Part shown: positions 22,140 through 52,660 of the stretch, one piece after another
How the letters are laid out: each line of letters begins with the position of its first letter
Numbering within the stretch: position 1 is the first letter of the stretch
From: SAR324 cluster bacterium
Lineage (GTDB): Bacteria; SAR324; NAC60-12
Reading direction: 5' to 3'
DNA: 64,000 nt
NCBI GenBank assembly: GCA_015231825.1
Contig: JADGAV010000009.1
Coordinates: 2,677-66,676 of the forward strand
The notes under the pieces: model-generated
Told to the model about the DNA's origin: nothing
The model's database searches: none
Seen by the model: the letters and a program-made list of their open reading frames with translations, nothing else
Translations under genes and position numbers: made by a program

Positions 22140-23375
22140 TTATTGCTTGGCAAGCATGTCACAAAGCATTGTGGTGGCTTTTCTTGAAAATTCAAGATCA
22201 TTGATATTGTGATTCAGTTCCACAATAGGAATTTCAGGTTTCAGTTTTGACTGAAGCCCTTCAATAAAAGCGTGGTCGGCGTCCGGATCCCAGAAAATTC
22301 CCGGTTGACCTTTTTCATCAATGGAATCAACTACAGAATAGCCTTGAAGGGGGATCAGAAAAGCAACAGGTCCCATCGCGCGGTTGGCTTTTTCAGCAAA
22401 GATTTCACCCATCTTTCGGTTTTCTTCAACGGTGGTGCGCATCAAAGTCACACTGGGGTTCCATTCGTAGAAGAGTCGGTCGTTGTATTTTTCAGGAACA
22501 GTATCGCGTCCGCTGTAGTTGACCATATCAAGACAGCCCGGTACCATCAAATGAGGGATTCCTGCTTTTCCCGGAGCATCCAAACGGGATTCTCCTGCAT
22601 TGAGGATTCCTCCGCAGATCTGATCGGCCCACTCGGTGGTGGTGATGTCCAATACAGCATCAACCCATCCGTCATCCACGAGGCTTTCCATGATTTTTCC
22701 TCCTGTTCCTGTGGCATGGAAAACAAGGACTTCAAAGCCTTTTTCAGTCAAAATTTCCCGGCATTGATCGACGGATTGCGTGGTGTTACCGAACATGGAT
22801 GCGGCAATAATGGCTTTGTCTTCCGCATCAATTTTTTCTTCTGTTTCGACCATACCGCAGATTGCTCCGACAGCCCGAGTGAATATTTTTCGACTGATCT
22901 GATTGACTCCAGCCACATCCACCACCGCAGGCATCATCGTAATATCCCTTGTTCCAATCCAGGCGGATGTGTCTGTTGTGGCCAAAGTCGAAACACAAAC
23001 TTTAGGAAAGCCGATGGGCAGTTCCTGCATTGCCGCTGTGGCCATTGCAGTTCCGCCGCCGCCGCCCATGCCGAAAACACCATCAATCCGTTTTTCTTCA
23101 AAGAGTTTCTTTGTAAGAAGGCGCGCACCTGTGCACATGACAGGAACCGCCTGCCCCCTATCTTTCTTTTCTCGGAGTGATCGTATGTTTTTTCCAGCGG
23201 CCCTCGCGACCTCTTCAGCTTCGAAATCGACTGGGAATAGTTCCGTGCTTCCCAAAATACCGGTGTTCATGGCCAGAACCCAATGTCCTCGTTCAAGGAT
23301 GAGATCACGAACAAAACGATATTCTTCCCCCTTGGAGTCAAATGCACCGACGATCAAAATTGTTTTTTTTGACAT
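22140..23375 (-). CDS. Tm-1-like ATP-binding domain protein (UPF0261)
   Basis: GAFDSKGEEY, GMGGGGGT, LPIGFPKVCVST, VVDVAGVN, ASMFGNTT, VFHATGTGG, DITTTE, HNPS-like NPSVTLMRT; ATG 23375. Confidence 0.9.
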   Translation of the reverse strand: MSKKTILIVGAFDSKGEEYRFVRDLILERGHWVLAMNTGILGSTELFPVDFEAEEVARAAGKNIRSLREKKDRGQAVPVMCTGARLLTKKLFEEKRIDGVFGMGGGGGTAMATAAMQELPIGFPKVCVSTLATTDTSAWIGTRDITMMPAVVDVAGVNQISRKIFTRAVGAICGMVETEEKIDAEDKAIIAASMFGNTTQSVDQCREILTEKGFEVLVFHATGTGGKIMESLVDDGWVDAVLDITTTEWADQICGGILNAGESRLDAPGKAGIPHLMVPGCLDMVNYSGRDTVPEKYNDRLFYEWNPSVTLMRTTVEENRKMGEIFAEKANRAMGPVAFLIPLQGYSVVDSIDEKGQPGIFWDPDADHAFIEGLQSKLKPEIPIVELNHNINDLEFSRKATTMLCDMLAKQ

Positions 23376-23397
23376 AAGATTATTCCCGTTGGAAGAT

Positions 23398-24276
23398 TCA
23401 GGAAGCAAAGCGAAGCTTTTTGAATTCTTGAATACGTTCAGTAATTGCAATTTCAGTAGGAAGCCGTTCCATGGAACTGGCCCCGTAAAAACCATCCACC
23501 CCCTCAACCCTTTCCAGAATATACTGGGCATCGGCCGGCATTGCAATCGGACCGCCATGACAGATGACAATCACATCATCCCGAATGCTTTTGCAGGTTT
23601 CCACGATCTTTTGAATTTCTACAACACAGGTGTCCAGTGTTTTTACGGTTTGCGCCCCAATGGAACCGCTGATGGTGGTTCCCATATGCGCTACAATTAA
23701 ATCGGCCCCCGCTTCAGTCATCATTTTTGCCTCTTCAATGTTGAAAACATAGGGAGTTGTTAGCATATCCAGTTCATGAGCAGCAGCAACGCATTCCACC
23801 TCGAGGTAGTAACCCATCCCTGTTTCCTCAAGATTGACCCTGAAAGTGCCGTCACAGATTCCTACAGTGGGAAAATTTTGGATTCCCGAAAAACCAAGCT
23901 CGATCAGTTCTTTAAGAAATTTTTCCCGTATCATGAATGGGTCTGTTCCGCAAACTCCTGCCAAAACGGGTGTATTTTTTACGACAGGAAGGACTTCATA
24001 AGCCATTTCCCTGACAATGTCGTTTGCATTTCCATAGGGCATCAGTCCGGCCATCGAACCGCGACCTGCCATTCGATAGCGTCCCGAATTGTAGATCACA
24101 ATCAGGTCGATACCCCCCTGTTCTTCACATTTTGCTGAGATTCCTGTTCCCGCTCCTCCGCCCATTATTGGTTCGCCTCGTGCAATTTTATCACGTAGTC
24201 CGATCAGAATTTCTTTCCGGTTTTTTGTACACCCCACTTGGACCTCTTGGATTGATAGGTTAATCTTAATTTTCAA
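23398..24276 (-). CDS. TIM-barrel protein of the phosphoenolpyruvate hydrolase-like / Tm-1 C-terminal family
   Basis: [52 protein letters not shown]; start TTG 24276 (overlapping xylB stop) or GTG 24237. Confidence 0.9.
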
Positions 24277-25781
24277 ATAGAATATGGAGTCATCAATTGG
24301 TTCAGCTCCAGATAGCGTTGATAAATTTCCCCATATTGAGCCACTGAGTTTTTCTCAGGAAGGCTTCGGGTTGATTCATCCAGGAAAACAAATTTTTCTG
24401 TTATTTCCTTAAAAGATGCAGGACCTTCTGTTTCATTGAGGAAACACCACATTGCCTGTAAAGCTGCCCCCATTGCTCCGGCTTCGGAGGATTTCGGGCA
24501 GACTACGGAACAATTGAAAACATCGGCGACCATTTGACGCCAAAGTGCGCTTTTTGCGCCGCCACCGACCAAACGGATTTCTTGAGGAACGATCCCTTGC
24601 TGGCGAAGCACATCCAAACCATAACGCAAGCCCAAGGTTGCTCCTTCCATAGCTGCACGACAAAGATTGGCGGCTGTATAGTTGATTGCGGAAATTCCGA
24701 AAAGGGTCGCTTTGGCATTTGGCAAAGCAGGAGTCCGTTCTCCATTGAAGTAGGGAAGGAGAATCAGGCCTTCAGAACCAGCAGGGGCCGATGCCGCTTT
24801 TTGATTCAATTCTTTAATGCCGAGACCCAGGAGGGCCCGAGTCAACTCAGTTGATACGGTGACGTTCATGGTGCAGACCAAGGGCAGCCAATGCCCGCTG
24901 CTCGAACAAAAGGCGGCCAGTTCTCCTTTGGGATCGATGATCGGTTTGTCCGCGCAAGAGTAGATTGCACCGGAGGTTCCCAGGCTGGTTGTGACAACAC
25001 CCGGCGTCACGTTTCCAGTTCCAATAGCGGCCATCATATTGTCGCCTCCTCCGGAAGAAACGATCACATCGGGGGACAGCTGAAACTGTTTTGCAGTTTT
25101 TTGGCTGATCTTGCCGATGGGGACATGCGACTCGACCAATTCCGGAAGACAGTCCGAGAGTTTTCCGGAATCGTCAATTGCCTCAAGAATCGCTGGGGCC
25201 CAGGATCTGTTTTTCACATCAAAATAGGCCGTTCCGGATGCGTCTCCGCACTCAGTTTTTTGTTCTCCGGTAAGCCAGTAGTTGATGTAGTCGTGAGGGA
25301 GAAGCACTTTGGCCAGACGCTGATAGTTTTCTGCTTCATTTTGTTTCATCCAAAGGATTTTGGAAGCAGTAAATCCTGCCGCAACAGAATTCCCAATCAG
25401 TTCAACAACTTTTTCAGGCCCGCCCACTTTCATTGTGATTTCCTCGCATTGCGACACGGTCTCGGTATCACACCAGAGTTTGGCGGGGCGGATGACCCTG
25501 CCTGCTCCGTCAAGAGGGGTCATTCCATGCTGTTGTCCGGAAACACCAATCGCCTTGACCTCTTTTGAGGATCCCGGTGTTTTTAAAACTTCATTGATCA
25601 CTTTGCTACAGGCTTCAGTCCACCAGGAGGGTTCCTGTTCCTTTTTTCCTGAATTATTCTCAATCAGTTCATGGGGAGCGTAGGCTTCTGAAATCACTTT
25701 CTTTTGCCGGGTACTAAAGAGAATGGCTTTGGTGCCCTGTGTACCGCTGTCAATTCCTAAAAATAATTGATCTCCAGACAT
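24273..25781 (-). CDS. xylB: Xylulokinase
   Basis: [56 protein letters not shown]. Confidence 0.93.
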
Positions 25782-25789
25782 TTTGACCC

Positions 25790-27103
25790 TTAAAGATAGG
25801 AGTTGATCAAATTTTCAATCATTTCCTGACGACCGCTGACAACGTTCGGTTCCCCATGTTCGAGAACGTATTGTTCCAATTCTGCAAAATTGCTTTCTCC
25901 TTTGGAAATTTTTGCTCCAATCCCGCTGGAGTAACTGGCATATCGATCTTCTATGATACGGGATAAAATCCCGTCATCAATTATCTTTTGGGCTGTGAGG
26001 AGAGCACGGGCCATAGAGTCCATTCCGCCGATATGTGCGTAAAACATATCGACGAGGTCCACTGAACTTCGTCTCGGTTTTGCATCAAAATTGAGTCCTC
26101 CGCTGCCCAGACCGCCATGTTTGAGAACCACGAGCATCATCATCACATTGGCGTGGATGTCAGTTGGAAATTGATCCGTATCCCAACCGTTTTGCGGGTC
26201 ACCGCGATTGGCGTCAATGCTTCCCAGTTTTCCCGCACTTGCAGCAACCGTCAAATCGTGTTCGGTAGCATGACCGGCCAAGGTGGAATGGTTGGGCTCG
26301 TGGTTTATTTTGAAATGATCAAACAAATCGTAGGCACGCAAAAAATTGAGCACTGTGGCAGAATCAACATCATACTGATGTTTGGTCGGTTCCATGGGTT
26401 TGGGTTCGATCAGGAACTGCCCGGAAAAGCCAATTTCTTTGGCATAGGCGACCGCCATGTGTAAAAAATTTGCAAAATTTTCCTGCTCGCGTTTCATGTC
26501 GGTGTTGAGGATTGTTTCATAGCCTTCGCGACCCCCCCAAAAAACATAATTCTCTCCTCCCAATTCGTGCGTGGCAGCGATAGCGTGTTTGGCCTGGGCT
26601 GCGGCATAGGCATAGACATGGGCATCCGGGTTGGTTCCTGCACCATGGGTGTATCGGCGATTTGAAAAAAGATTGGCAGTTCCCCAAAGCAATTTAATTC
26701 CGCTTTCCTCCTGTTTTCTCTTTGCACGTTGGACTATATGCTCAAGGTTTTTGCAGGATTCTCCGAAATTTGCTCCCTCTGGAGCGATGTCGCGATCATG
26801 AAATGTATAGTACGGGACTCCCATTTTTTGAAAAAATTCAAATGCTGCGTCTTGCCGGTTTTCTGCTTCTGCCAACGAGTTAGTGTTGTCAAACCAGGGG
26901 CGGAGAAATGTTGCTTCTCCAAAGGGATCTGAACCTCGGTACTGGAAAGTATGCCAATAGCAGATTGCAAATCTCAGATGGTCTCTCATGGTCTTTCCCG
27001 CGACGATTTGATCGGCGTTGTAGTATCGGAAGGCCAGCGGATTTGTCGTATCTCTCCCTTCGTATCGGACGGGTTCTGCGACTTCTGGAAAATAATGGGT
27101 CAT
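25790..27103 (-). CDS. xylA: Xylose isomerase (class II)
   Basis: HLRFAICYWHTF, FHDRD, LWGTANLF, WGGREGY, IEPKPMEP, DANRGD, GWDTDQFP, GGLNFDAK. Confidence 0.96.
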   Translation of the reverse strand: MTHYFPEVAEPVRYEGRDTTNPLAFRYYNADQIVAGKTMRDHLRFAICYWHTFQYRGSDPFGEATFLRPWFDNTNSLAEAENRQDAAFEFFQKMGVPYYTFHDRDIAPEGANFGESCKNLEHIVQRAKRKQEESGIKLLWGTANLFSNRRYTHGAGTNPDAHVYAYAAAQAKHAIAATHELGGENYVFWGGREGYETILNTDMKREQENFANFLHMAVAYAKEIGFSGQFLIEPKPMEPTKHQYDVDSATVLNFLRAYDLFDHFKINHEPNHSTLAGHATEHDLTVAASAGKLGSIDANRGDPQNGWDTDQFPTDIHANVMMMLVVLKHGGLGSGGLNFDAKPRRSSVDLVDMFYAHIGGMDSMARALLTAQKIIDDGILSRIIEDRYASYSSGIGAKISKGESNFAELEQYVLEHGEPNVVSGRQEMIENLINSYL

Positions 27104-27146
27104 ATTTACCTCATGGACAAAAAAGTGTTCAATGCTTGTTTCTGTT

Positions 27147-28361
27147 TCAGATTGTTGGTTTGATTCGATTTAACGGAGATTTATATAGCTCCTGCAAGAC
27201 GAGGCTCGCAGCCCCGCGCGCCCAGTCCGTATCGTCCCATTTCTGAATGAGGATTTTGGCGGAGCTGAGCATTTCATGATGGGAGTGGCGATTCACTGCC
27301 TCGCGCATAGGGACAAACAACATGTCCCCTGCCCGGACTCCCTCACCGGTGATAATGATTCGTTCCGGATTAAAAATATGGATTAAATTTGATAACCCAA
27401 TGCCCAGTATTTCTCCGGCTTTTTTAAAGATGCTGCGCAGCACCGGCTGACCCTTTTGGGCGAGAGCGGTCACTTTTTCAATAGTCAGCTGCTCAATGTT
27501 GTCAGCATGCCATTTTTGATCAGCATGGGCTTGCCGTGCCAGTTCCAAAATGGAAACATCACTGACGTAGGCCTCCAGGCATCCTTTTTTCCCGCAGCGG
27601 CACAATGTTCCCTCGGGGATCAGAACCATGTGTCCACATTCGGCACCAATGCTTTTGACTCCCCGGTACATCTGACTGTTGATCACAATCCCCATCCCGA
27701 TACCATGTTCGATGGTGACGACTATAAAATTATCGATCCCCTTTCCCTGACCGAACCATTGTTCGCCCAGAGTGATCGTGTTGGCATCATTTTCGATATA
27801 GGTGCTGATTTTCAATCGCTCTTGAATCAAATCCCGCAATGGAATTTCTCCTTTTTGATAGAGAGGAGTCCAATGGCAGATTCCGGAGCGGCTGTCTATG
27901 AATCCGGGAATCCCGATCCCGATTCCAGAAATTTGTTTGAGCTGAAGTTGCGCTTCTTCAACGCAGTGACGGATTCCGTCTTCAATCAGGTTGGCGATAT
28001 ACTCAACGGGCCGCTTGCCGGTCTGGATCGGAATCGCCAATGAACTCAAAATACCGGCTTCCATGTTGGTGACCGCAAAACTTACTTTGAAGGCAGAAAT
28101 TTTCACTCCGACCACATAAACCGCATCGGGGTTGAGGGCGAGCATTACTCTCCGGCGACCTCGTAAAGAAGAATCTTGAATTTCTTTTTCGAAAATTAAA
28201 TTTTCTGAAATCAACCGTGCGGTGATGCCGGTGACCGAAGCGCGACTGATGCCGGTGATTCGCGCAATTTCAACCCTGGAAATAGCATTTGATGTCCGGA
28301 TTGTGTTCAGAATGCTGAATTGATTGATCTCCCGGATCAGTTCTCGATTTGCGACAGCCAT
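27147..28361 (-). CDS. xylR: ROK family transcriptional repressor (XylR-like)
   Basis: N-terminal HTH ISRVEIARITGISRASVT, GIGIGIPG, ENDAN, GIGMG, ECGH...CRCGKKGCLE. Confidence 0.85.
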   Translation of the reverse strand: MAVANRELIREINQFSILNTIRTSNAISRVEIARITGISRASVTGITARLISENLIFEKEIQDSSLRGRRRVMLALNPDAVYVVGVKISAFKVSFAVTNMEAGILSSLAIPIQTGKRPVEYIANLIEDGIRHCVEEAQLQLKQISGIGIGIPGFIDSRSGICHWTPLYQKGEIPLRDLIQERLKISTYIENDANTITLGEQWFGQGKGIDNFIVVTIEHGIGMGIVINSQMYRGVKSIGAECGHMVLIPEGTLCRCGKKGCLEAYVSDVSILELARQAHADQKWHADNIEQLTIEKVTALAQKGQPVLRSIFKKAGEILGIGLSNLIHIFNPERIIITGEGVRAGDMLFVPMREAVNRHSHHEMLSSAKILIQKWDDTDWARGAASLVLQELYKSPLNRIKPTI

Positions 28362-28540: not shown

Positions 28541-31500
28541 TCAGGATTTTTCAAGGAGGGCAGTCAGTTTGGCAAAGAGTTCCTTCAGCTGATGCATAGA
28601 AATTTTATTGGAAGGTTCACATTGATTGATCACGAACTCCGCTGTGTCGATCACTTTGTTGTACTTGGGTTTTTGAGGAAGTTTTTCCAATTTGAGATAT
28701 TTATCCAGTGTTCTCGTTTTGAAAACCCCCTGGTCCAGGTATACCTTCCATATATTGGACTCTTCAGCCAGGTCAACTTTGTTTTTGCCTGTGATTTCCT
28801 GCCAGGCGTTCAGGGAAGCCTCCATCACATCAACCAAAGTCTGTCTCATTTCCTCCGAGTAGGGGGTGGAATGGTCTTCTTCCCTCAATAATGGGTCTAA
28901 ATTTTCACGAAGTTGGGGAAGAAGTTCCGGTCCTCCTTCAATCAGATACTGAAGAATGTTGTCGAAGAACCCATCCATTGAAAGTATTGTCTGCTTTTTG
29001 TCCATCAATTCTTGAATCAATTCTGTAGAGAAAACTTCGTTTTGATGATCTTTATTTGATCGTTCATACTGGTCGGGAGAAGCTGGATTGGGATGGGAAG
29101 GGTCGGGATTGATCACGAAGGTATAAATACGCTCATCATCCAGTTCAAAACTTGTTACAGAAGAATAAAGCATCACTTCCTGCCCCTGGCTGGTTCGCAC
29201 CGTTAACTTGGCACGAGCTTTAAACACCGGGTGAATTTGAGATTGCTGTTCAATATTATCAAGGAGCTGCCGGTATTCAGTTTGATAAGACTGAGCAATC
29301 AGAAGATCCGAAAATTTTCCCAGTATTCCGGCTGCTGAATACCCGAACAGGGATTCTGCCCTTTGATTGAAATAGACAATCTCCTGGTTTTCGTTGATTG
29401 CAATGATCGCCATCTCGGCAACATCCAGAATTTTTGCGAGACGTTTTTTCGATCGATCCAGTTCCTGTTCAACTTTTTTCCGACGCACGATTTCTGCTTT
29501 GAGCTGCTGGTTTTCCTGCAGAGTTTCGACGGATTCTTTAATCCGGAGATGAGTTTTGACCCGACTGAGTAACTCTTCCTGACTGAATGGTTTGGTCAGG
29601 TAGTCATTGGCTCCCCCATTGAGTCCGCGAAGCAAATCCGAAACTTCATTTTTTGCCGTCAGAAAAATTATCGGCAGCAGCCAGGCATCATAAGTTTCCC
29701 GTATTCTTCCGCACAATTCGTGCCCATCCATTCGGGGCATCATGATATCGAGCAGAATCAAATCGGGCTGCTCAATTTTTAAAATATCCAGGGCCTGAAA
29801 TGCACTTTGAGCGACAAGAACCCGGTAATGGTGGAGTTCCAGAAAGTTGCGCATTACTTTCAAATTCACATTTTCATCATCAATCACTAAAATCGACTGC
29901 CCGGTTCCCTGGGGGACAATGACCTTGCTGTGAGTTGCCGAATTGGGTGAGATGCCTAAAATATTTTTTGTGTATTGCAGCGGCAGCAATGTGGAACTTT
30001 GTTTGTGATCCATCGTTGATTCCGGTTTACGATCCGTTATTTTCAGAGAAAAGTAAAAGCGGGAACCTTTGTGAGGATTATTGGCCACCTGAAGGTTGCT
30101 GCCATGCAGATTCACGAGCTGTTGGCTGATGGTCAGGCCCAGTCCGCTTCCTCCAAATTCACGGCTAGTGGAACTATCCCCTTGTTCAAAGGACTGAAAA
30201 ATTTGTTTCTGCTTGCTGTTGGGAATGCCGATTCCTGTATCAGAAACTGTGATTTCAACTTTATCCTCATGCTGCCTTGCTTCAACCGTGACTTCTCCTT
30301 CGGCTGTGAATTTGATGGCATTGCCGATCAGGTTATAAAAAATTTGCTGCAGACGGTTCTCATCTCCCAAGACGCTGGGAAAATTATCGGGAATATTATT
30401 GAGCAATTCGAGCTGTTTCTCACCCACAAGGGGCTGGGAGAGAGAAAGCACCATTTCGACGATGCTTTTGAGATCGACGGGCTTCAATTGCAGCGCAAGC
30501 GCGTGCTGCCTCATTTTGGAATAATCCAGAATGTCATTGATCAATCCATAGAGGCGGCGGCCGCTGGAGACAATCATCGACAAATTTTCGTGAACTTGTT
30601 CAGGCAACGAACCTGCGGCCCCGGCAATCAGCGATTCTGCAATCCCGATGATACCGTTCAGGGGAGTTCTCAGTTCGTGTGAAGTGTTGGCTAAAAATTC
30701 GTCTTTCAGCTGCTCGATCCGGATTTGCTCAGTGATATCCCGGATTGAAATAGCGGGAATGGGCTCCCTTCTAATTGTAATTTCAATATCCAGCTGGCGG
30801 ACCCCTGGACTTTCACCCTCGCGGACTCTCTGCAAGCCAATGGAGCGAAAGGGCTGTGCATTGCCTGATTTGATATTGTTCCTGATCAGGTCATGAAACT
30901 CCGGAGCATTGAGATCGGTCAAATCCATCCCGATCAATTCATCATGGTCATAATTGAACATTTGCGCCAAAACAGGATTGGCGTCTGCAATTTTACCATG
31001 ATTATGAATCGCTACGCCTTCAAAAGTCGCTTCAGATAATTGGCGGAATCGTTGTTCGCTTTCTTTTAGCAGACGATCCAGTTTTCTTTTTTCCGTCAGA
31101 TCTTCAGAAACTCCAAGCAGGCCAATGACTTCACCTTTTTTGTTGTTCAGAGCAATTTTGGTGGTAGAGAGCCATAAGGTTTTTCCGTCAGCAGGTGTAT
31201 GATTTTCCTGAACCGTATAGTTTTCTATGTTTTGTTTCATGACCATTTGATCAATATTGCAGAAGGCATCGGCTTGATCACTCCAGGGCATGTCATAGTC
31301 TGACTTTCCAATCATTTCTTCAGGCGAACTCAGGCCCGCCCTGTCGGACATCCCCTTGCTGCATCCGAGCATCTTCGAGTCCAGGTCCTTCCAGAATGTG
31401 TAAAAATGCGGAAGATGATTGATTACCATTTGATAAAGTTCGTTAGATTTTTTCAGATCTTCAATCGTTGCCCGAGCCTCTTTGAGTTCCTGCTGGATTT

Positions 31501-31579
31501 TGTCGGTGGGTTTTTGCTGATCTTGAACCTTCTGATGCGATGGGGAGGAAGAATCTTGCGGCGAATAATTGTGACTCAT
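28541..31579 (-). CDS. Soluble hybrid sensor kinase PAS-PAS-HisKA-HATPase-REC-PAS with C-terminal ChiS-family DNA-binding domain
   Basis: SHELRTPLNGIIG, NLIGNAIKFT, DTGIGI, GSGLGL, LLDIMMP; tail RQTLVDVM...W...AEESNIWKVYLD...TRTLDKYL...LPQKP; ATG 31579 with AAGGGAG RBS (alt 31624). Confidence 0.88.
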   Translation of the reverse strand: MSHNYSPQDSSSPSHQKVQDQQKPTDKIQQELKEARATIEDLKKSNELYQMVINHLPHFYTFWKDLDSKMLGCSKGMSDRAGLSSPEEMIGKSDYDMPWSDQADAFCNIDQMVMKQNIENYTVQENHTPADGKTLWLSTTKIALNNKKGEVIGLLGVSEDLTEKRKLDRLLKESEQRFRQLSEATFEGVAIHNHGKIADANPVLAQMFNYDHDELIGMDLTDLNAPEFHDLIRNNIKSGNAQPFRSIGLQRVREGESPGVRQLDIEITIRREPIPAISIRDITEQIRIEQLKDEFLANTSHELRTPLNGIIGIAESLIAGAAGSLPEQVHENLSMIVSSGRRLYGLINDILDYSKMRQHALALQLKPVDLKSIVEMVLSLSQPLVGEKQLELLNNIPDNFPSVLGDENRLQQIFYNLIGNAIKFTAEGEVTVEARQHEDKVEITVSDTGIGIPNSKQKQIFQSFEQGDSSTSREFGGSGLGLTISQQLVNLHGSNLQVANNPHKGSRFYFSLKITDRKPESTMDHKQSSTLLPLQYTKNILGISPNSATHSKVIVPQGTGQSILVIDDENVNLKVMRNFLELHHYRVLVAQSAFQALDILKIEQPDLILLDIMMPRMDGHELCGRIRETYDAWLLPIIFLTAKNEVSDLLRGLNGGANDYLTKPFSQEELLSRVKTHLRIKESVETLQENQQLKAEIVRRKKVEQELDRSKKRLAKILDVAEMAIIAINENQEIVYFNQRAESLFGYSAAGILGKFSDLLIAQSYQTEYRQLLDNIEQQSQIHPVFKARAKLTVRTSQGQEVMLYSSVTSFELDDERIYTFVINPDPSHPNPASPDQYERSNKDHQNEVFSTELIQELMDKKQTILSMDGFFDNILQYLIEGGPELLPQLRENLDPLLREEDHSTPYSEEMRQTLVDVMEASLNAWQEITGKNKVDLAEESNIWKVYLDQGVFKTRTLDKYLKLEKLPQKPKYNKVIDTAEFVINQCEPSNKISMHQLKELFAKLTALLEKS

Positions 31580-32218
31580 TTTAAGCTCCCTTCTTCTCTT
31601 TTTACTGTCTGCCTTAGTGTTCATGTCAAAATACGCTTGGAAGGTGTCAAAAACAAAATTTGGGAATCACTTGAAGATTTTCTCTTTTTTAAACCGAGGA
31701 ATTTGGTCAAAAATATTAATAATTACAAAATATTAGAACATTGGTCTTGCCAAGTTTAAAATTTTTTAGGTGCGTGTCAAATAATAAAAACTGGTGTCAA
31801 AAATTAATTTTCTCTTTTCAAATCACCTGGCGATCGGTAGATTTTCAGGCATCGGTATTCGGAGCTTGTTTTATATTAAGCATTTAATTCATTCAGTGAA
31901 TTTAAATCACTAAAAAAATGCTCCCCCGAAAATTGATGCAGATCAGTGCTGAGGGACTGGTCATAAATTCGTCCCTCAGACCCGGTTTCCGATGGGAGGT
32001 TTTTTTTGAAATCCCTCCATTGTGAAACAAAATTGAAATGGACGAATGATGGTTAAATCCAGTCAAATCTGTAAGCAATTATTTCAATACACCATCAATC
32101 AAGGCGCAATCAAGATTTTCGTATTATTTGTCAATCTTAGTCGTGTTAGTTAGTCTTCCCGAATGCTTTTCAGCGAAGACTCAATTGATTTAAAAAATTC
32201 GAAAAATAAAGGTGAAAT

Positions 32219-33424
32219 ATGGTTAGTGGAACAGAAACCCGGCCCAGCATTACACGGAAGTTGAGGATGGGTATGGTGGGTGGAGGCAACGATGCCTTTA
32301 TCGGTGCAGTTCATCGAAAAGCAGCGATCATGGATGGACAAGTTGAATTTATTGCTGGAGCCCTGTCTTCAAATCCTGAAAAAGCAAAGAGTTCAGCCAA
32401 AGCTCTTTTGTTGGAAGAAAAACGATCCTACAGTTCGTGGGAAGAGATGGTAGAAAAAGAATCTTTACTCTCGGAATGGGAAAGGATTGATTTTGTATCA
32501 ATTGTTACTCCGAATTTCATGCATTTTCCAATTGCCAAAGCTTTTGTAGAAGCGGGAATCCATGTGGTCTGCGACAAGCCGATGACCTTTTCTTTAGAAG
32601 AAGCCAAAGAATTGGTGAGAATCGTGGAAAAATCCGATGTTGTCTTTGCATTGACTCACAATTATACCGGATATCCCATGGTCAAGCAGGCACGTCACAT
32701 GGTCGCTGGCGGGCAGCTGGGTGATTTATTGAAAGTGATTGTGGAATATCCTCAGGGATGGTTGCTGACTCCTCTGGAAAAGGAAGGGCAGAAACAAGCG
32801 TCCTGGCGCACTGATCCTAAACGTTCCGGAGTGGCCAATTGTATAGGAGACATTGGTTCTCACTGTGAAAATCTTGCTCATTATATCACAGGTCTGGAGA
32901 TCAAGGAAATTTGCGCTGATTTGACTAGCATTGAGGGCCGAGAGCTGGACAATGACGGCAATATTCTAATTCATTTTGAAAATGGTATTCCCGGCATTTT
33001 GCATGCGTCTCAATTTTCTGCTGGAGAAGAAAATAATCTGAGGATCCGCGTCTATGGCACTGATGGGGCAATCGAATGGCATCAGGAGGAGCCCAACACC
33101 CTCTGGTTCAGAACCAACGATCATCCTGCTCAGCTCTATCGAAGAGGAAATTCATATCTTTGTGAAGCGGCGCAGCTGGCTTCCCGCCTCCCTCCTGGAC
33201 ATCCGGAAAGTTTTATAGAAGCATTTGCCAATGTCTATAAGAATGCGACCGATACGATTCGCGCAAAAATTCTGGGAATCGAAGCAAATGAGTTTGAACT
33301 GGACTTCCCGAATGTCATTGATGGTGCAAGAGGACTCGCATTTATTGAATCTGCTGTTGAGTCTGGAGCAAGCAATCAAAAATGGTATCCGATGAAAAGT
33401 TTTCAGCTCAATAACAACCATTAA
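32219..33424 (+). CDS. Gfo/Idh/MocA family oxidoreductase
   Basis: LRMGMVGGG, FIGAVHR, IVTPNFMH, VVCDKPM, YPQGWL, GDIGSH. Confidence 0.92.
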   Translation: MVSGTETRPSITRKLRMGMVGGGNDAFIGAVHRKAAIMDGQVEFIAGALSSNPEKAKSSAKALLLEEKRSYSSWEEMVEKESLLSEWERIDFVSIVTPNFMHFPIAKAFVEAGIHVVCDKPMTFSLEEAKELVRIVEKSDVVFALTHNYTGYPMVKQARHMVAGGQLGDLLKVIVEYPQGWLLTPLEKEGQKQASWRTDPKRSGVANCIGDIGSHCENLAHYITGLEIKEICADLTSIEGRELDNDGNILIHFENGIPGILHASQFSAGEENNLRIRVYGTDGAIEWHQEEPNTLWFRTNDHPAQLYRRGNSYLCEAAQLASRLPPGHPESFIEAFANVYKNATDTIRAKILGIEANEFELDFPNVIDGARGLAFIESAVESGASNQKWYPMKSFQLNNNH

Positions 33425-33452
33425 TCAATAACTTTTTTTTAGAGAGGTCACG

Positions 33453-34487
33453 ATGGCAAAGTATGTCTTGCATCCCAGTATTGAAGGAGCCCAGCACGGA
33501 GCCAAGTCCCTGGACGAATTTTTGGCTTTTGCCAAGAAATCCGGTGCTGCGGGAGCTCAACCGTCTAATTTTATTGTACAAAAAGGTGATGGATTTTACA
33601 GTGCTCAGGAAATACGGGATCATTTTGAAAAGCATGAAATGAAAATGGATGGAATTTCCAACCACTGCATCATGTGGGCGCACACCACGGCTTGGACCGG
33701 AAGCAAAACGATCCGTCCCTTTTTACCAGGGGAGGTTTGGAAAAAATCGGTTTCTGAAATTGAGGCATGGTGTGAAGATTACATTTTACGTTTCTTTGAT
33801 CTGTCCGCAGAATTGGGCTTGAAGATTATTCCGATGTTTTGGGGGATGTCGTGTGGATTTGAATTAGGGTCCGGTTATCCCTTTGGATTTTTTCAGGGTC
33901 CTGAATATGATTTGGAAAAAGAAGCTCTTGAGCGGTTTGTGACGAAAACAGAAAAAATTCGTACCCGCGCCAACGAGTTAGGACTTTTCATCTGTCACGA
34001 GATCCATCCGAATTCTGCGGCGATGTGCGCAGACGACTTCAATGCATTGGTTGAAGCATGCGATGGAGACAAATGTCTTGGTGTGACGGCAGACCCCTCT
34101 CATTGTTGGGAAGGAGAAGATGCGGAGACACGATTCCAAAAGGTGGCGGACCGGGTTTATTCTGCGGCCTGGAAGAACTTTGTCATTCGTCCCGGGGTTC
34201 CTCTCCGCAAAATGTCTGGGGATTGGACTCAAAGGGCTATGCAGTTTGTAGATCTCGGCACGGGGGATATGAATTTGATGCGTTATACGGAGCTGATGAT
34301 CAATATTGGTTATGCTGAGCGCTACTGTGAAATTATGGGTTCAGATACCGCGCCGCTGGTTACTGAAGCAGAGAGTGCTTATCGGGATCTCGATGCAACC
34401 AGTGCCAATGCGATCGCCTATGCACGGGATGCTCTGTGTTTTCCTGTTGCTGAAGGATCTTTTGAAGATGGAATGGGAACAGAGTGA
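33453..34487 (+). CDS. Sugar phosphate isomerase/epimerase (AP endonuclease 2 TIM barrel)
   Basis: CHEIHP, ADPSHC..EG, FVDLGTGD, VTEAE metal-site pattern. Confidence 0.75.
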   Translation: MAKYVLHPSIEGAQHGAKSLDEFLAFAKKSGAAGAQPSNFIVQKGDGFYSAQEIRDHFEKHEMKMDGISNHCIMWAHTTAWTGSKTIRPFLPGEVWKKSVSEIEAWCEDYILRFFDLSAELGLKIIPMFWGMSCGFELGSGYPFGFFQGPEYDLEKEALERFVTKTEKIRTRANELGLFICHEIHPNSAAMCADDFNALVEACDGDKCLGVTADPSHCWEGEDAETRFQKVADRVYSAAWKNFVIRPGVPLRKMSGDWTQRAMQFVDLGTGDMNLMRYTELMINIGYAERYCEIMGSDTAPLVTEAESAYRDLDATSANAIAYARDALCFPVAEGSFEDGMGTE

Positions 34488-34682
34488 GTCTGTTCTCTTT
34501 TCTGTCGCGGGACCTTTTGCTTTGATAAAGGTCCTATTTTGTGGGCGTTCCGACGCCGGATTAAGGCTTTGGTTTGATGGTATTTCCAAAAACCAGGGTA
34601 GCAATTGTCAGAAATCACCTTCGATAGCGATCTTTTTGATGCCATCATAAGGTAATATAATCATTTCTTTTATGGGGTGAGT

Positions 34683-35990
34683 ATGAATTTGTTAAAAAAA
34701 TTAACACTCGGGATATTGGCATTGACAATTTCCAGTGCATTGTACGCTCAAAAATTAACCATTTTCTGGGCAGAATGGGATCCTGCTAATCAACTTCAGG
34801 AATTAGCAGAGATGTATACGGAAGAAACGGGAGTGGATGTTGTTGTGGAAACCACACCATGGCCAGATTTTCAAACCAAGACATTTACGGAATTTGCCGC
34901 TAAAGGAAGCAGTTTTGATATGGTTGTCGGCGATTCACAATGGGTGGGTGCCGGTGTCAAGGGCGGTCACTACGTCAAGTTGAATGACTTTTTTAAAGAA
35001 CATAAAGTTGCGGAAACCATGACTGCAGGAACCGTTGCGGCTTATGCCGAGTATCCCCAAGGATCGAAAAACTATTATGCAATTCCGACTGAAGGGGATG
35101 CTGATGGCTGGGCCTATCGTAAGGATTGGTTTGAAGATCCTAAGGAGATGGCCAATTTTCAAAAGAAATACGGCTATAAACTGGATGTTCCAGAGACTTG
35201 GGCACAACTGAAGGATATTGCCGAATTTTTTCACCGTCCCGATGAAGGCCGTTACGGTGTAACCGTTTATACGGGCAAGGGTTATGATGCGTTGACGATG
35301 GGTATTGAAAACGTCATTTTTGCTTTTGGCGGAAGTTTGGGCGATTACGCCACCTACAAAGTAGAAGGCCTGGTCAACAGCAAAGAAACAATTGCTGCCG
35401 TGGAATACTACAAAGAGCTTTACCAGTTCACACCTCCGGACTGGGGAGATACTTTTTTTGCAGAAGCAAATCAAGTCTTCACTCAGGGAAAAGTCGCGAT
35501 GTCCATGAACTATTTTGCTTTTTTTCCGGCTTTGACCAACAAAAAGGTCAATCCTCACGTTGCAGGAACAGGCTATTTTTCGAACCCGAAGGGTCCTGCA
35601 GGACGTTTTGCTGCCCTGGGAGGACAGGGAATGTCAATCAATTCTTATATTTCAGATAGCCAGAAAAAATTGTCCTATGATTTTCTGGCATGGTTTGTCA
35701 AAGAAGAAAACCAAAGGAAATGGGCTGAAGTGGGTGGATTCACCTGCAACAAAGCCGTTTTGGAATCCGAAGCGTTCTTGAATGCGACTCCTTTCAATGC
35801 CGCTTTCAAAGAGACGATGTTCATGGTGAAAGATTTTTGGGCAATTCCTGAATTCGCCGACTTGTTGGAGCCGATTCAAAGAAATATGCACCAATATATT
35901 GTTGCCGATCAAGGAACGGCCAAAGAAGGATTAGACAATGTCGCCAGAGAATGGAAAGAAATTCTGAAAAAAGCTGGCTACACCAACTGA
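34683..35990 (+). CDS. Carbohydrate ABC transporter (CUT1) substrate-binding protein
   Basis: Signal peptide; LTIFWAEWDPAN, GDSQW, YRKDWF, VPETWAQL, ALGGQG. Confidence 0.9.
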   Translation: MNLLKKLTLGILALTISSALYAQKLTIFWAEWDPANQLQELAEMYTEETGVDVVVETTPWPDFQTKTFTEFAAKGSSFDMVVGDSQWVGAGVKGGHYVKLNDFFKEHKVAETMTAGTVAAYAEYPQGSKNYYAIPTEGDADGWAYRKDWFEDPKEMANFQKKYGYKLDVPETWAQLKDIAEFFHRPDEGRYGVTVYTGKGYDALTMGIENVIFAFGGSLGDYATYKVEGLVNSKETIAAVEYYKELYQFTPPDWGDTFFAEANQVFTQGKVAMSMNYFAFFPALTNKKVNPHVAGTGYFSNPKGPAGRFAALGGQGMSINSYISDSQKKLSYDFLAWFVKEENQRKWAEVGGFTCNKAVLESEAFLNATPFNAAFKETMFMVKDFWAIPEFADLLEPIQRNMHQYIVADQGTAKEGLDNVAREWKEILKKAGYTN

Positions 35991-36011
35991 TCACATCCCA
36001 TCCTTAATCAG

Positions 36012-36038
36012 GAGGAGAGGAAACTCTCCTCTTTCTTT
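36012..36038 (+). terminator. GAAA-tetraloop hairpin after the binding-protein gene (terminator or mRNA-stabilising stem)
   Basis: GAGGAGAG-GAAA-CTCTCCTC followed by TTTCTTT. Confidence 0.6.
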
Positions 36039-36059
36039 GACTCTTTTTTAAATAAAAAT

Positions 36060-36998
36060 ATGGAAGGTAATACCATGGCTGTTGGAGTGCATAAAGAGGC
36101 GACGAATAGTCAACCGGGATTAGCCAGAACGGGTTTGAGTGATTTAAGTATCCGTAATCTCTTTATTATTCCCACAATTGCATTTTTGGCGTGCATGAAT
36201 ATTTTCCCATTGATTTGGTCTTTATTTCTGAGTTTTCATGAATGGCGTGCAAATTTACCCGATGAAAAAGCAGTCTACGTCGGAATTCAGCATTACCGTG
36301 ATATTTTAAACGACCCGGCGTTTTGGCAGACATTTTCCCTGACTGCCCAGTATGTGCTGTATGCGGTGGTTGGCGAACTGGTGGTCGGTTTTGGTGTTGC
36401 ACTCCTGCTCAATCGGGAAATGAAGGCGAAAGGAGTAATCACAACTCTACTTTTACTGCCAATGATGATGTCACCGGCAGTGGTTGGGTTGTTTTGGAAA
36501 CTGCTCTGGAATCCTGGCTGGGGAATTGTCAATCCGATCTTCGGTTTAGCGAACGATTACGCATGGCTTTCTGATGCCAATCGTGCATTGTGGGCCGTCG
36601 TGATCACCGATATCTGGATGTGGGCACCCTTTGTAATGCTGCTCTCGCTTGCCGGGCTTTCTGCGATTCCCAAACATTTGTATGAAGCAGCGGAAATTGA
36701 TAGAGCCTCCTGGTGGTTCACCTTCAGGAACATCACACTTCCCCTTGTCACTCCCTTGCTTCTGATTGCCATAATTTTCAGGACCATGGAAAATTTTAAA
36801 CAGTTCGATATGATCTTCACCATGACAGGCGGGGGCCCGGGAACTTCCACAGAAGTTCATTCCATCCGACTCTATCGGATGGCTTTTCAGTCCTGGGACA
36901 CTGGGAAATCCAGTGCCTTTGCCTATATCCTGCTGATCATGGTGATCGGAATCAGCATGATCTATATCAAATACCTCAATAAAATAAAGGAGCGATAA
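36060..36998 (+). CDS. Carbohydrate ABC transporter permease
   Basis: EAA loop LYEAAEIDRASWWFTFRNITLP; multiple TM helices. Confidence 0.92.
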   Translation: MEGNTMAVGVHKEATNSQPGLARTGLSDLSIRNLFIIPTIAFLACMNIFPLIWSLFLSFHEWRANLPDEKAVYVGIQHYRDILNDPAFWQTFSLTAQYVLYAVVGELVVGFGVALLLNREMKAKGVITTLLLLPMMMSPAVVGLFWKLLWNPGWGIVNPIFGLANDYAWLSDANRALWAVVITDIWMWAPFVMLLSLAGLSAIPKHLYEAAEIDRASWWFTFRNITLPLVTPLLLIAIIFRTMENFKQFDMIFTMTGGGPGTSTEVHSIRLYRMAFQSWDTGKSSAFAYILLIMVIGISMIYIKYLNKIKER

Positions 36999-37936
36999 TG
37001 GCGGCGGTTGTCTCGAAAAACAACAAACTTTACAACCAGTTGATGGTGGCCACTGTTTTAGTGGTGACTTTTATCATGCTGGTACCGATTTACTGGATTG
37101 CTTCCACGTCCTTTAAATCTTACAACGATTCTGTTTCGATTCCTCCGACGGTTTTCTTTGAACCGGAGATGACCGGGGTGGTGAAGGTTTTTACGAAGCG
37201 GACTATCTTGAGAAAAGACCCAAGTCCAGCAAAACTGGCAAAATCGGCCTGGTATGAAAAAATTATCTTCAAAGCAGGAGAAAAAGTACTCAGAGCATCA
37301 GCATTTCCAAGTCGGCTCTGGAACAGCATTGTGATTTGTGTGGTCAGCACAGCGATTGCGTTGATGATGGGAACATTTGCCGCCTATGCCTTTTCCCGGT
37401 TTAAAATATTTGGGAAAGACGATTGGCTGTTTTTTATCCTCAGCCAGAAAATGCTGCCTCCCATGGTGGTGATTATCCCGATATTTCTGATGTACCGAAC
37501 TTTGGGCCTGATAGACAGTTACTCTGGGATGATCCTTATTTATACCGCCATGAACCTCCCTTTTGCTGTTTGGCTGATGAAGGGCTTCGTCGATGAAATT
37601 CCAATTGAGTATGAAGAAGCAGCGATGATTGATGGATACACTCGTTTCCAGGCGTTTTGGAAGATAGTCCTGCCTCAATCTGTGACCGGGATGGCCGCTA
37701 CATCAGTTTTTTGCTTTATCACTGCCTGGAACGAATTTGCCTTGGCTCTGATACTGGCGCCCCGCAACGTGCAGACAGCTCCCCCATTTATTCCTTCTCA
37801 AGTTGGATCCGGGATCCCGGACTGGACTGCAATTGCTGCAGGAGCAACCATCTTTTTGATCCCTGTGATGATTTTTACTTTCCTTCTCAGAAAACATTTG
37901 CTGCGAGGGGTAACTTTTGGAGCGATTCGAAAATAA
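36998..37936 (+). CDS. Carbohydrate ABC transporter permease
   Basis: EIPIEYEEAAMIDG, WNEF, RGVTFGA; ATG overlaps previous stop. Confidence 0.92.
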   Translation: MAAVVSKNNKLYNQLMVATVLVVTFIMLVPIYWIASTSFKSYNDSVSIPPTVFFEPEMTGVVKVFTKRTILRKDPSPAKLAKSAWYEKIIFKAGEKVLRASAFPSRLWNSIVICVVSTAIALMMGTFAAYAFSRFKIFGKDDWLFFILSQKMLPPMVVIIPIFLMYRTLGLIDSYSGMILIYTAMNLPFAVWLMKGFVDEIPIEYEEAAMIDGYTRFQAFWKIVLPQSVTGMAATSVFCFITAWNEFALALILAPRNVQTAPPFIPSQVGSGIPDWTAIAAGATIFLIPVMIFTFLLRKHLLRGVTFGAIRK

Positions 37937-37945
37937 GGAGTCATA

Positions 37946-38149
37946 ATGACATTTAAAGAAATCAGTGCCAAATATTTGGAACCCCTTTCCATGTGGGTGA
38001 TGATTTTAGGAATTATCGGGATCAGTCAACCCTGGTCCGAATGGTTTCACCGATATGGATTCACGATTACCTTGATGGGGTTTGTTGGATTTATTATTTT
38101 TTCACACATCCAGCCTCCTAAAAAACGTGCTGTACAAGACGAAGGATAA
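37946..38149 (+). CDS. Small two-helix membrane protein inside the ABC operon
   Basis: RBS AAGGAG; two hydrophobic segments flanking QPW; fills gap between permease and ATPase. Confidence 0.7.
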   Translation: MTFKEISAKYLEPLSMWVMILGIIGISQPWSEWFHRYGFTITLMGFVGFIIFSHIQPPKKRAVQDEG

Positions 38150-38155
38150 ACCGAT

Positions 38156-39274
38156 ATGGCAAATATAAATGTAAAAGACATGATCAAACGATTTGGTCAA
38201 ACGGAGGTGATCACCAAACTCAATTTGGAAATCAAAGACCAGGAGTTTGTTGTCTTGCTCGGCCCTTCGGGGTGCGGCAAGACGACGACGTTACGGGCGA
38301 TTGCAGGATTAGAAGATATTCAGGGGGGAGAAATAACAATCGACGGCAAAGCCGTTCACGATCTTCCTGTTAAACAGCGTGATATTGCTTTTGTTTTTCA
38401 GCTCTTCGCTCTTTACCCGCATCTTTCTGCATTCAATAATATTGCTTTTCCATTGAAAGCGGCAGGAATGCCAAAAAGTGATATAGAAAAAAGAGTATTT
38501 GCAGTGGCAGAATTTCTTCAGATTAAATCTTTGCTGAAAAGTATGCCTTCAGCGCTCAGCGGAGGAGATCTGCAGAGGGTTTCGATGGCAAGAGCGTTGG
38601 TGAGGGACCCAAAGGCTTTGCTGATGGATGAACCGATGGGAACACTTGATGCGAAATTACGAGAGGAATTGAGGACGGAGTTGAAGCACCTGCACATAGA
38701 AACCAATTCCACGACCGTCTACGTCACCCACGATCAAGTCGAAGCGATGTCGATGGGCGACAAAATTGCAGTCATGAATGACGGGATTCTTCAGCAAATG
38801 GGGAACCCCAAGGAAGTTTATGACAATCCCAGCAATATTTTTGTTGCTCAATTTATCGGCAGTCCTGTCATGAATGTTGTCGATTGCAATTATGCGACGG
38901 ATGGAGATGTCACCCATTTGGTGCTTGGGGAGAACAATTCCGACAAGTTCACTCTATCCAAAAACCTGACTCAGAAACTGAAGGCGAAAAATGGAGATTC
39001 TAAAAATCTGGCTGTTGGGATAAGGGCAGAAGCTGTTGATTTAAAACTGGAGCCCACAAAAGGATACGTCAAGGTTGAAGTCGAAGTGATTGAACCCCTG
39101 GGCCCCTTTGACATTGTTGATGTTAAGGTAGGAGATGGTCTTGTGAGGAGCAGTACCCGAAGCCAATATGTCGAAAAAAGTTGTAAGCACGTCTGGATCC
39201 ATTTGAATGAAGAAAAGATTCATTTTTTTGACACTCAAAGTGGACAATCCCTGAATATCAATGCGGAGGCATAA
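38156..39274 (+). CDS. Carbohydrate ABC transporter ATP-binding protein (MalK-like)
   Basis: GPSGCGKTT, LSGGDLQR, LMDEP, YVTHDQ, FIGSP, TOBE tail. Confidence 0.95.
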   Translation: MANINVKDMIKRFGQTEVITKLNLEIKDQEFVVLLGPSGCGKTTTLRAIAGLEDIQGGEITIDGKAVHDLPVKQRDIAFVFQLFALYPHLSAFNNIAFPLKAAGMPKSDIEKRVFAVAEFLQIKSLLKSMPSALSGGDLQRVSMARALVRDPKALLMDEPMGTLDAKLREELRTELKHLHIETNSTTVYVTHDQVEAMSMGDKIAVMNDGILQQMGNPKEVYDNPSNIFVAQFIGSPVMNVVDCNYATDGDVTHLVLGENNSDKFTLSKNLTQKLKAKNGDSKNLAVGIRAEAVDLKLEPTKGYVKVEVEVIEPLGPFDIVDVKVGDGLVRSSTRSQYVEKSCKHVWIHLNEEKIHFFDTQSGQSLNINAEA

Positions 39275-40360: not shown

Positions 40361-40573
40361 ATCCCTGCTGCATTAGAAATTTTGATTGCCGAGGTTTCCT
40401 CCGCCTGTCCTCTTTCGTCGAGAAGGTCTCATCTGAACCCTTGTGAAGGAGGGCAGGACTCGCCGTGATTAGACAAGATGAAAGCTTTCTTGTCTTTCAA
40501 TCGAAAAATACAGTCGAGAATAATTCTTTGAAAATCCCATAATACTGAAAAAACATCCAAATAGGAGACGATA

Positions 40574-52637: not shown

Positions 52638-52660
52638 AATGCTCAGTATTCGAAATTTTG

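Follow-up and report, generated by a model that had tools for sequence, protein, structure and literature searches.

SAR324 is an abundant, largely uncultured marine lineage. The stretch analyzed here, 64,000 nucleotides of contig JADGAV010000009.1 from a SAR324 cluster bacterium (the window), carries a gene for a predicted soluble hybrid histidine kinase of the ChiS family that also has a C-terminal DNA-binding domain (DBD). The public gene call for this protein, the regulator (P0001), has 1012 amino acids (aa) and starts at 31579. Counted from its first ATG, the open reading frame (ORF) spans 28541..31624 on the minus strand and encodes 1027 aa. We prefer the start at 31579 because a GGGAG Shine-Dalgarno sequence lies 8 nt 5' of that ATG, because the ATG at 31624 falls within a conserved DNA element (TTTTGACATGAA), and because in the closest orthologue locus (L001) the element is kept, yet its ATG opens just a 13-codon frame that ends in a stop. 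With no conserved reading frame in L001 and its ATG inside a DNA element, 31624 was rejected as the regulator start. A preliminary description of this DNA, made from the letters alone, had also begun the gene at 31579, in agreement with the public call, the Shine-Dalgarno sequence, and the orthologue. It had given the domain order as PAS-PAS-HisKA-HATPase-REC-PAS, which Pfam recovers. Below, positions of Pfam domains are counted in the 1027-aa numbering, and the nucleotide coordinates of domains are window positions.

28541..31579, minus strand: regulator gene, soluble ChiS-family hybrid histidine kinase and DNA-binding protein, 1012 aa
31085..31402, minus strand: N-terminal PAS domain (PAS1), aa 75-180, Pfam; highly conserved in the subfamily (HLPHYYTFWKD...WLSTTK)
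30725..31057, minus strand: second PAS domain, aa ~190-300, approximate boundaries, Pfam
30038..30706, minus strand: kinase core, with HisKA at 30506-30706 (aa 307-373) and HATPase_c at 30038-30367 (aa 420-529)
29555..29893, minus strand: REC domain, aa 578-690, Pfam
29111..29443, minus strand: third PAS domain (PAS3), aa 728-838, between REC and DBD as in ChiS, Pfam
28544..28870, minus strand: ChiS-family helix-sheet-helix DBD, last 109 aa, from PDB sequence match and AlphaFold/Foldseek

Pfam finds no family past about aa 840, which leaves the last ~190 residues uncovered, and no HAMP, Cache, or Hpt domain in the regulator. NCBIfam returns only sub-threshold hybrid-kinase matches (TorS, BarA, ArcB, and others), all ending before the C terminus. 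Because neither database has a model of the ChiS DBD, the regulator passes through annotation pipelines as an ordinary hybrid kinase or PAS protein, and its identity as a transcription factor is missed.

ChiS of Vibrio cholerae (VC0622) is a hybrid sensor kinase of the one-component type that is embedded in the membrane (Klancher et al. 2020, doi 10.1101/2020.01.10.902320; PMC8092284), and the crystal structure of its DBD is PDB entry 7KPO (Klancher et al., mBio 2021, PMC8092284). The preliminary description had quoted the C-terminal peptide of the regulator, which is found exactly in the translation, and had noted its resemblance to the ChiS DBD. When we searched the last 187 aa against all PDB sequences with phmmer, 7KPO_A matched at E 2e-21, with the runner-up at E 0.056; a 13-sequence family profile matched 7KPO at E 1.1e-32, covering residues 3-105 of 108. 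The fold bears out the resemblance as well. AlphaFold2, run without templates on the last 109 aa, gave a model with a mean predicted local distance difference test score (pLDDT) of 94.3 and the order helix, helix, strand, strand, helix, with predicted secondary structure H31-38, E44-46, E49-51, and H53-57. In a Foldseek search of the PDB with this model, 7KPO was the sole match at E<=0.001, aligned with template modelling scores (TM-scores) of 0.85/0.86 and a root-mean-square deviation of 1.5 A over 101 columns at 36% identity. These matches, far above chance, identify the C-terminal domain as a ChiS-family DBD, homologous to ChiS residues 1024-1129, and the model gives it the helix-sheet-helix fold, that is, a helix-turn-helix (HTH) with a beta-hairpin instead of the turn. 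The preliminary description had named a failure of this domain to align or fold like the ChiS DBD as a refuting outcome, and that outcome was not obtained.

Five ChiS residues are essential to DNA binding, two of which, R1074 and K1078, were modelled by the ChiS authors as nearest the bases; conservation of R1068 within the family is poor, and this residue may determine which sequence is bound (Klancher et al., PMC8092284). The alignment places them in the regulator as follows.

ChiS R1068: Q950 in the SAR324 regulator
ChiS R1074: R956 in the SAR324 regulator, identical
ChiS K1078: K960 in the SAR324 regulator, identical
ChiS R1090: K972 in the SAR324 regulator
ChiS R1092: N974 in the SAR324 regulator

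We judged residue conservation in a 12-sequence alignment of 11 subfamily members and one membrane ChiS-like protein. The helix-sheet-helix is the best-conserved stretch of the C-terminal domain, with W944, Y947, L948, T955, R956, T957, K960, Y961, and L962 invariant, and the PAS3-to-DBD linker of ~70 residues is poorly conserved.

The preliminary description had seen no transmembrane (TM) segment, and hydropathy agrees. We used a 19-residue Kyte-Doolittle mean with a threshold of 1.6 and took membrane-type relatives as positive controls. The regulator peaks at 1.39, in the HisKA helix, and ten full-length orthologues (P0002-P0011; 49-67% identity, 989-1037 aa) peak at 1.11-1.46, against 2.4-3.3 and up to 8 segments in the membrane relatives. 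The regulator is therefore predicted to be cytoplasmic and free of TM segments. Its phosphotransfer residues are intact. The H-box FLANTSHELRTP, with H301 and T305, the latter at the ChiS phosphatase position T473, is invariant in the 12 sequences, and so are the N, G1, and G2 boxes of the kinase and D567, D568, D611, T641, and K663 of the receiver. The HK-REC-PAS-DBD portion (HK, histidine kinase) aligns with P0014, a protein of dCache-HAMP membrane architecture named ChiS by the Joint Genome Institute (JGI), at 43% identity over 70% of the query. Because of this alignment, we regard the output module as ChiS-like, with only the input module swapped for cytoplasmic PAS domains.

30677-30679, minus strand: H301, phosphorylation residue of the regulator
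29747-29749, minus strand: D611, receiver phosphorylation residue of the regulator
4916-5329, minus strand: stand-alone CheY-like receiver ORF, sole REC domain of the 64 kb outside the regulator, ~23 kb from it

The preliminary description had stated that no cognate response regulator is nearby; the CheY-like ORF is distant, and those window ORFs that were examined yielded neither an Hpt protein nor a DNA-binding response regulator. Most hybrid kinases act through a multistep phosphorelay, and it would be conventional to assign the regulator the same role, in which an Hpt protein and a response regulator encoded elsewhere would take phosphate from D611 and the C-terminal domain would mediate protein contacts or dimerization. 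That all kinase and receiver residues are intact, and that two ChiS DNA-binding residues are replaced, would suit such a relay. We consider it very improbable. The C-terminal domain is a close sequence and structure homologue of a domain that is by itself sufficient for specific DNA binding (PMC8092284), and its best-conserved stretch is the helix-sheet-helix. The regulator has no Hpt domain, the window ORFs scanned include no Hpt protein or DNA-binding response regulator, and ChiS itself lacks a cognate response regulator.

The family to which the DBD belongs is large, and soluble kinases are rare in it. A word-indexed search with the DBD only gave two fragments, and an exhaustive profile search was used instead, which put the number of 50%-identity clusters with the DBD at 979 or more. 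In the regulator, and in ~145 of the best 150 representatives, only 0-15 residues follow the domain. Among these 150, 58 are complete at >=700 aa, and 55 of the 58 have TM segments; the TM-free proteins are P0011, from the regulator's own subfamily, P0250 (REC-HK-REC-PAS), and P0244. The family also has shorter soluble REC-PAS-DBD proteins (e.g., P0134 and P0137). A published survey counted 3,829 proteins with the ChiS DBD, 15.3% of them with non-ChiS architectures, and its carriers include Deltaproteobacteria and Candidatus Lambdaproteobacteria (mBio 2021, PMC8092284). When genome contigs were scanned with the full-length sequence, generic kinase motifs dominated the matches and no orthologue emerged; the same scan with a DBD alignment gave 13 loci, one of them orthologue-like. 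The matches listed from a metagenome scan with a PAS1 alignment were PAS domains of unrelated PAS-HK proteins; no ChiS DBD and no new orthologue was among them. The PAS1 type itself (LPHYYTFW...GK[ST]D[YF]) is shared, among the matches listed, by hundreds of PAS-HK and PAS-HK-REC proteins that are otherwise unrelated (L137-L216; 29-45% identity), and on these similarities it is a widespread sensor module.

The conserved genomic partner of the regulator is a divergent operon for a Gfo/Idh/MocA oxidoreductase (Gfo), a TIM-barrel protein, and an ATP-binding cassette (ABC) transporter, not xylAB as such. In eight contexts, the window included, the regulator gene is divergent from the Gfo gene, which is followed by an AP_endonuc_2 TIM-barrel gene and then a sugar ABC transporter (the other seven contexts are L001, L002/L003, L084, L085, L086, L217, and L218). 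The pairing is kept despite a switch of transporter, which is of the CUT1 type in the window and L001 and of a ribose/xylose-like CUT2 type elsewhere.

32219..41425, plus strand: divergent operon, whole
32219-33424, plus strand: Gfo/Idh/MocA oxidoreductase
33453-34487, plus strand: TIM-barrel protein
34677-35990, plus strand: CUT1 solute-binding protein
36060-37936, plus strand: two permeases
38156-40360, plus strand: two ATPases
40574-41425, plus strand: second TIM-barrel, epimerase-like protein
22140..28361, minus strand: tightly packed genes downstream on the regulator's strand, whole
27147-28361, minus strand: ROK regulator
25790-27103, minus strand: xylA
24273-25781, minus strand: xylB
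23398-24276, minus strand: gene like phosphoenolpyruvate (PEP) hydrolase
22140-about 23366, minus strand: UPF0261 gene

The gaps downstream are 179 bp between regulator and ROK, 43 bp between ROK and xylA, and 8 bp between xylA and xylB. In L001, the ROK gene follows the regulator. In L002, ROK, xylA, and xylB lie 5.5-8.5 kb from the regulator, past an inserted transposase and toxin-antitoxin pair, which points to an ancestral regulator-ROK-xyl linkage that the insertion later broke. The inserted segment (L002 13288-15454) holds a DDE transposase and a HigB/HTH toxin-antitoxin pair. ROK, xylA, and xylB were not found in the flanks of L084 and L085. The preliminary description had placed the regulator in a xylose/sugar island; the sugar part of that claim stands, with a divergent sugar operon in all eight contexts, and the xylose part holds more narrowly, with ROK and xylAB next to or near the regulator in only three loci. 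Directly behind xylB come the UPF0261 and PEP-hydrolase-like genes (22140-24276, minus strand), a conserved pair whose ends overlap or nearly abut, apparently within the xylose operon.

The PDB entries nearest to the Gfo enzyme of the divergent operon are 3V5N (E 6e-115) and 3DTY, neither of them characterised biochemically, and curated models for levoglucosan, inositol, and xylose dehydrogenases all score far under their cut-offs on it. The TIM-barrel protein has no sequence relative in the PDB, and there are no chitin genes among the regulator's neighbours. The window as a whole is ordinary chromosomal DNA, with LptF/G, Omp85, leuB-like, trpBA, and flagellar rod genes. Its Obg is up to 74% identical to the Obg proteins of SAR324-cluster metagenome-assembled genomes.

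Between the regulator and the Gfo gene lies a 639-bp intergenic region with four TTTGACAY elements, all on the regulator's strand and arranged as two direct-repeat pairs, A and B.

31794..31802, minus strand: candidate operator A1, TTTTGACAC
31774..31782, minus strand: candidate operator A2, ATTTGACAC, 20 bp from A1
31644..31652, minus strand: candidate operator B1, TTTTGACAC
31623..31631, minus strand: candidate operator B2, TTTTGACAT, 21 bp from B1, containing the non-conserved ATG 31624
31886..31902, no strand assigned: palindrome AATTCAYNNNRTGAATT, also in the L001 intergenic region (about 8989-9011) and between xylA and ROK in L002 (19940-19960)

Local composition predicts 0.13 TTTGACAY elements, and none of 20000 composition-matched simulations reached the four seen. 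Pairs A and B are the only TTTGACAY pairs in the whole 64 kb, and in comparison with L001 they stand out as conserved islands in diverged DNA. Seven other loci (L002, L084, L085, L086, L217, L218, and L219) have an inverted pair, GTGTCAA-N10-TTGACAC (N8 in L086, N27 in L217), and, nearer the Gfo gene, an element AAGGGGCAAAA-N4-TTTT(A/G)ACACC, of the GGGGCAAAA-N4-TTTTAACACC type, whose spacer is N4 in L084, L085, and L218 and longer elsewhere. In loci other than the window and L001, the candidate sites lie between the regulator and the Gfo gene. We looked for candidate sites in the intervals 28362-28540 and 27104-27146 and found none.

The elements closely resemble validated ChiS sites (TTTTGACGT): the TTTTGAC core is common to both, and the next two bases differ. 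In V. cholerae, a 60-bp Pchb probe contains two validated ChiS sites, ATTTTGACGTTAA and GTTTTGACGTTTT (primer table, mBio 2021, PMC8092284), and binding is lost when the CGT of both is replaced by TAC (PMC8092284). The setting is similar too. TTGACA comes 22-23 nt after A1 and B1, and TTGCAA, which we read as a candidate -35 and which the source paper does not annotate, comes 21 nt after ChiS site 2. From these likenesses, we propose the TTTTGACAY elements as candidate operators of the ChiS-like regulator.

The palindrome AATTCAYNNNRTGAATT is missing from loci without ROK and tracks with ROK and the xyl genes, and as an operator it probably belongs to the ROK (XylR-like) regulator and not to the ChiS-like protein. 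The ROK repressor that the preliminary description set alongside the regulator thus gains a predicted site of its own here, and two regulators would then read the intergenic region. Other features of the region were noted. GC-rich hairpins at 31994-32018 and 31949-31979 (GGAGGG...CCCTCC; CTGAGGGAC...GTCCCTCAG) are not conserved in L001 and have no Rfam match; an Rfam scan of 28300-32300 gave no match at E<=1. A block shared with L001 at 32077-32120, ~100-140 bp before the Gfo start (AAWTCTTGATTG-N12-ATRGTGTAT..AAATAATT), may serve as the promoter of the Gfo gene or as a further binding site.

TTGACA is the sigma-70 -35 consensus hexamer. It is tempting, then, to read the TTTTGACAY elements as -35 hexamers, or as sites of another factor, beside a DNA-binding ChiS-family protein whose own operator lies elsewhere or is different. 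The best sigma-70-like match in the intergenic region, 10/12 and directed toward the regulator, is the TTGACA of A2 with TAAACT. The two TTGACA copies of the second subgroup, with its inverted pair, face outward like back-to-back divergent -35 boxes. One soluble orthologue-like locus (L124) is without the motif, and a ROK regulator is also encoded at the locus. Still, we regard this explanation as unlikely. Of the other 33 window intergenic regions that were tallied, most lack a perfect TTGACA, whereas the regulator's region holds 5 of the 17 copies, so the hexamer is not a routine -35 here. Conservation in the orthologue sites extends beyond it (WWTTGACAC[C]). By eye and at few loci, no consistent -10 was found at 17+/-1 nt from the elements, and the systematic scan covered the window only. 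The elements are kept in loci without ROK nearby, where the only ever-present regulator is the ChiS-like gene, the ROK-linked palindrome differs from them in sequence, and the validated ChiS site has TTTTGAC too.

We therefore favor, as probable though well short of certain, a cytoplasmic one-component regulator in which a ChiS-family hybrid kinase is also the transcription factor, binding WWTTGACAY under phosphate control and governing the divergent operon and/or its own unit. The two N-terminal PAS domains, and possibly PAS3, would sense an intracellular signal that shifts the kinase/phosphatase balance of the HisKA/HATPase core. H301 would hand its phosphate to D611 in the receiver of the same protein, and the phosphorylation state of D611 would gate two DBDs flexibly tethered to the dimeric kinase. 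These would occupy the paired WWTTGACAY elements of the 639 bp that separate the regulator gene from the divergent Gfo operon, and their binding would control that operon, the regulator-ROK-xylA-xylB unit, or both. In ChiS, receiver phosphorylation lowers DNA binding, and there is no cognate response regulator (Klancher et al.). By analogy, the unphosphorylated form of the SAR324 regulator would be the one that binds DNA. Binding to the elements, the promoter controlled, activation as opposed to repression, the polarity of the phospho-switch, and the ligand are all predictions of this scheme, in which the regulator would control pentose/glycoside catabolism, as the preliminary description had it.

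Several observations weigh against this scheme. Two of the five ChiS DNA-binding residues are replaced (R1068Q, R1092N). Site layout varies by subgroup, with direct repeats at 20-21 bp in one and inverted repeats in the other. In the window and L001, the sites are 52-231 bp from the regulator ATG and 417-596 bp from the Gfo start; because all four are nearer the regulator, control of the Gfo operon is not obvious there, and in these two loci the candidate sites may mainly control the regulator-ROK-xylAB unit. Some elements could be promoter parts because TTGACA is the -35 hexamer and A2 overlaps the best match. L124, from one SAR324 genome, encodes a soluble orthologue-like protein without a Gfo neighbour and without the motif; its regulator-like gene adjoins an unrelated giant sensor gene. 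None of the public sequencing runs searched for the locus contains it. Finally, because the cytoplasmic part of ChiS does not activate, an activator role cannot be assumed for a soluble form.

ChiS is an activator that recruits RNA polymerase alpha; in one ectopic-expression experiment, its isolated cytoplasmic part bound DNA in vivo and failed to activate, which led to the idea that membrane recruitment matters (Klancher et al.). The same molecule at the same sites might accordingly be a repressor or autorepressor that occludes the -35 at A2 and, at pair B just 5' of its own start codon, blocks initiation or elongation until the signal relieves binding. We rate this as somewhat unlikely, though it has more in its favor than the promoter-hexamer explanation. 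A2 overlaps the best -35 match, pair B lies 44-73 bp 5' of the ATG, which a transcription start near 31745 would place within the leader, and the soluble V. cholerae fragment is just such a protein that binds and cannot activate. Against repression, the 22-23 nt from A1 and B1 to TTGACA mirror the 21 nt from ChiS site 2 to its candidate -35, an activator geometry; ChiS itself activates by recruiting RNA polymerase alpha; and the promoter predictions on which occlusion would depend are weak and not conserved in L001.

Whichever sign it has, the regulator, read as a putative phospho-gated ChiS-family DNA-binding protein, may offer a view of how the DBD chooses its site. Paired TTTGAC elements also occur beside other family genes (L127, L132, L134, and L135). 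For 19 regulator genes, we counted the base after TTTGAC over 500 bp of upstream and 400 bp of downstream flank. It is G in 3 of 5 matches beside proteins with R at the R1068 position versus 0 of 35 beside those with Q, G, V, K, or N (Fisher p 0.001), in a small sample whose loci are not phylogenetically independent and in which CpG content confounds. V. cholerae, with R at 1068 and a GACG site, is consistent with the pattern. The flanks of one R-type locus (L220, encoding P0014) have no T-tract TTGACG sites; targets need not be adjacent. These counts weakly suggest a recognition rule in which the residue at the R1068 position specifies the base after TTTTGAC. Downstream of the P0014 gene, L220 also has a run of TCGAA-containing repeats at 4272-4460 (CGAATATCGAATATCGAACACCGAATTTCGAATAC). 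We put forward only tentatively, as plausible without being probable, the wider proposal that a membrane-free ChiS-family kinase regulates without a tether, and that TTTTGACA-C/T (Q) versus TTTTGACG-T (R) shows a beta-hairpin arginine reading the G after TTTTGAC.

Elsewhere in the window, 18628-19299 (plus strand) encodes a small protein with HTH_17 fused to a phosphotransferase system (PTS) EIIA(2) domain and overlaps a ClC chloride channel gene with a CBS domain (19259-21022, plus strand). An ORF at 415-1383 (minus strand) has an IS200-like Y1 transposase domain and a DnaA C-terminal HTH. Four sizeable ORFs (370, 227, 430, and 558 aa), in 8308-9420 (plus strand), 51954-53953 (minus strand), and 61476-63152 (plus strand), match no Pfam family at E<=1e-5.

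The ChiS DBD family, its mechanism, and its architectural diversity are already published, and soluble REC-PAS-DBD members exist (mBio 2021, PMC8092284). What the SAR324 regulator adds is a rare soluble hybrid-kinase variant from another lineage, one whose sugar-operon partner is conserved and for which an operator is predicted. Functional work on the ChiS DBD has all been on membrane-anchored Vibrio ChiS, and we found no functional study of any non-Vibrio family member in the literature searched, so a naturally soluble hybrid-kinase member is an obvious test case, in which the sign of regulation, activator or repressor, is of particular interest. To our knowledge, no ChiS-family DBD has a DNA-bound structure. 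A second operator that differs at defined positions, together with a defined residue change, makes a testable recognition hypothesis. The locus also ties an uncharacterised sugar oxidoreductase/TIM-barrel/ABC pathway, along with xylose catabolism, to a dedicated intracellular sensor.

Among known systems, Bacteroides hybrid two-component systems (HTCS) also join sensor, HK, REC, and an AraC-type DBD in one polypeptide and control polysaccharide utilisation loci. The likeness lies in a sensor-kinase-receiver-DNA-binding fusion encoded beside carbohydrate genes. HTCS differ in belonging to an unrelated family, with an AraC HTH DBD, an inner-membrane location, and a large periplasmic sensor; the regulator has neither an HTH_18/AraC match in Pfam nor membrane segments by hydropathy. 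Closer are the 7TMR-DISM or dCache/HAMP hybrid kinases of Desulfobacterales and SAR324 (P0014, P0028, P0072, L126-L135), which have the same C-terminal DBD, often as HK-REC-PAS-DBD. The REC-PAS-DBD proteins (P0134, P0137) have no kinase and would need a partner. ChiS differs from the regulator in its TM helices, periplasmic domain, and HAMP, in place of which the regulator has two cytoplasmic PAS domains; in its chitin-binding-protein partner and chb regulon, where the regulator adjoins a Gfo/TIM/ABC operon and a xylose cluster; in its sites, GACGT at 31 bp versus GACA(C/T) at 20-21 bp; in R1068 and R1092, where the regulator has Q and N; and in its host, Vibrionaceae instead of SAR324. What the two share is the HK-REC-PAS-DBD output module, with DBDs at 36% identity and a TM-score of 0.85; intact H, T(+4), and D phosphorylation residues with no Hpt and no cognate response regulator; adjoining genes for sugar uptake and catabolism; and candidate sites with a TTTTGAC core in paired repeats at whole helical turns.

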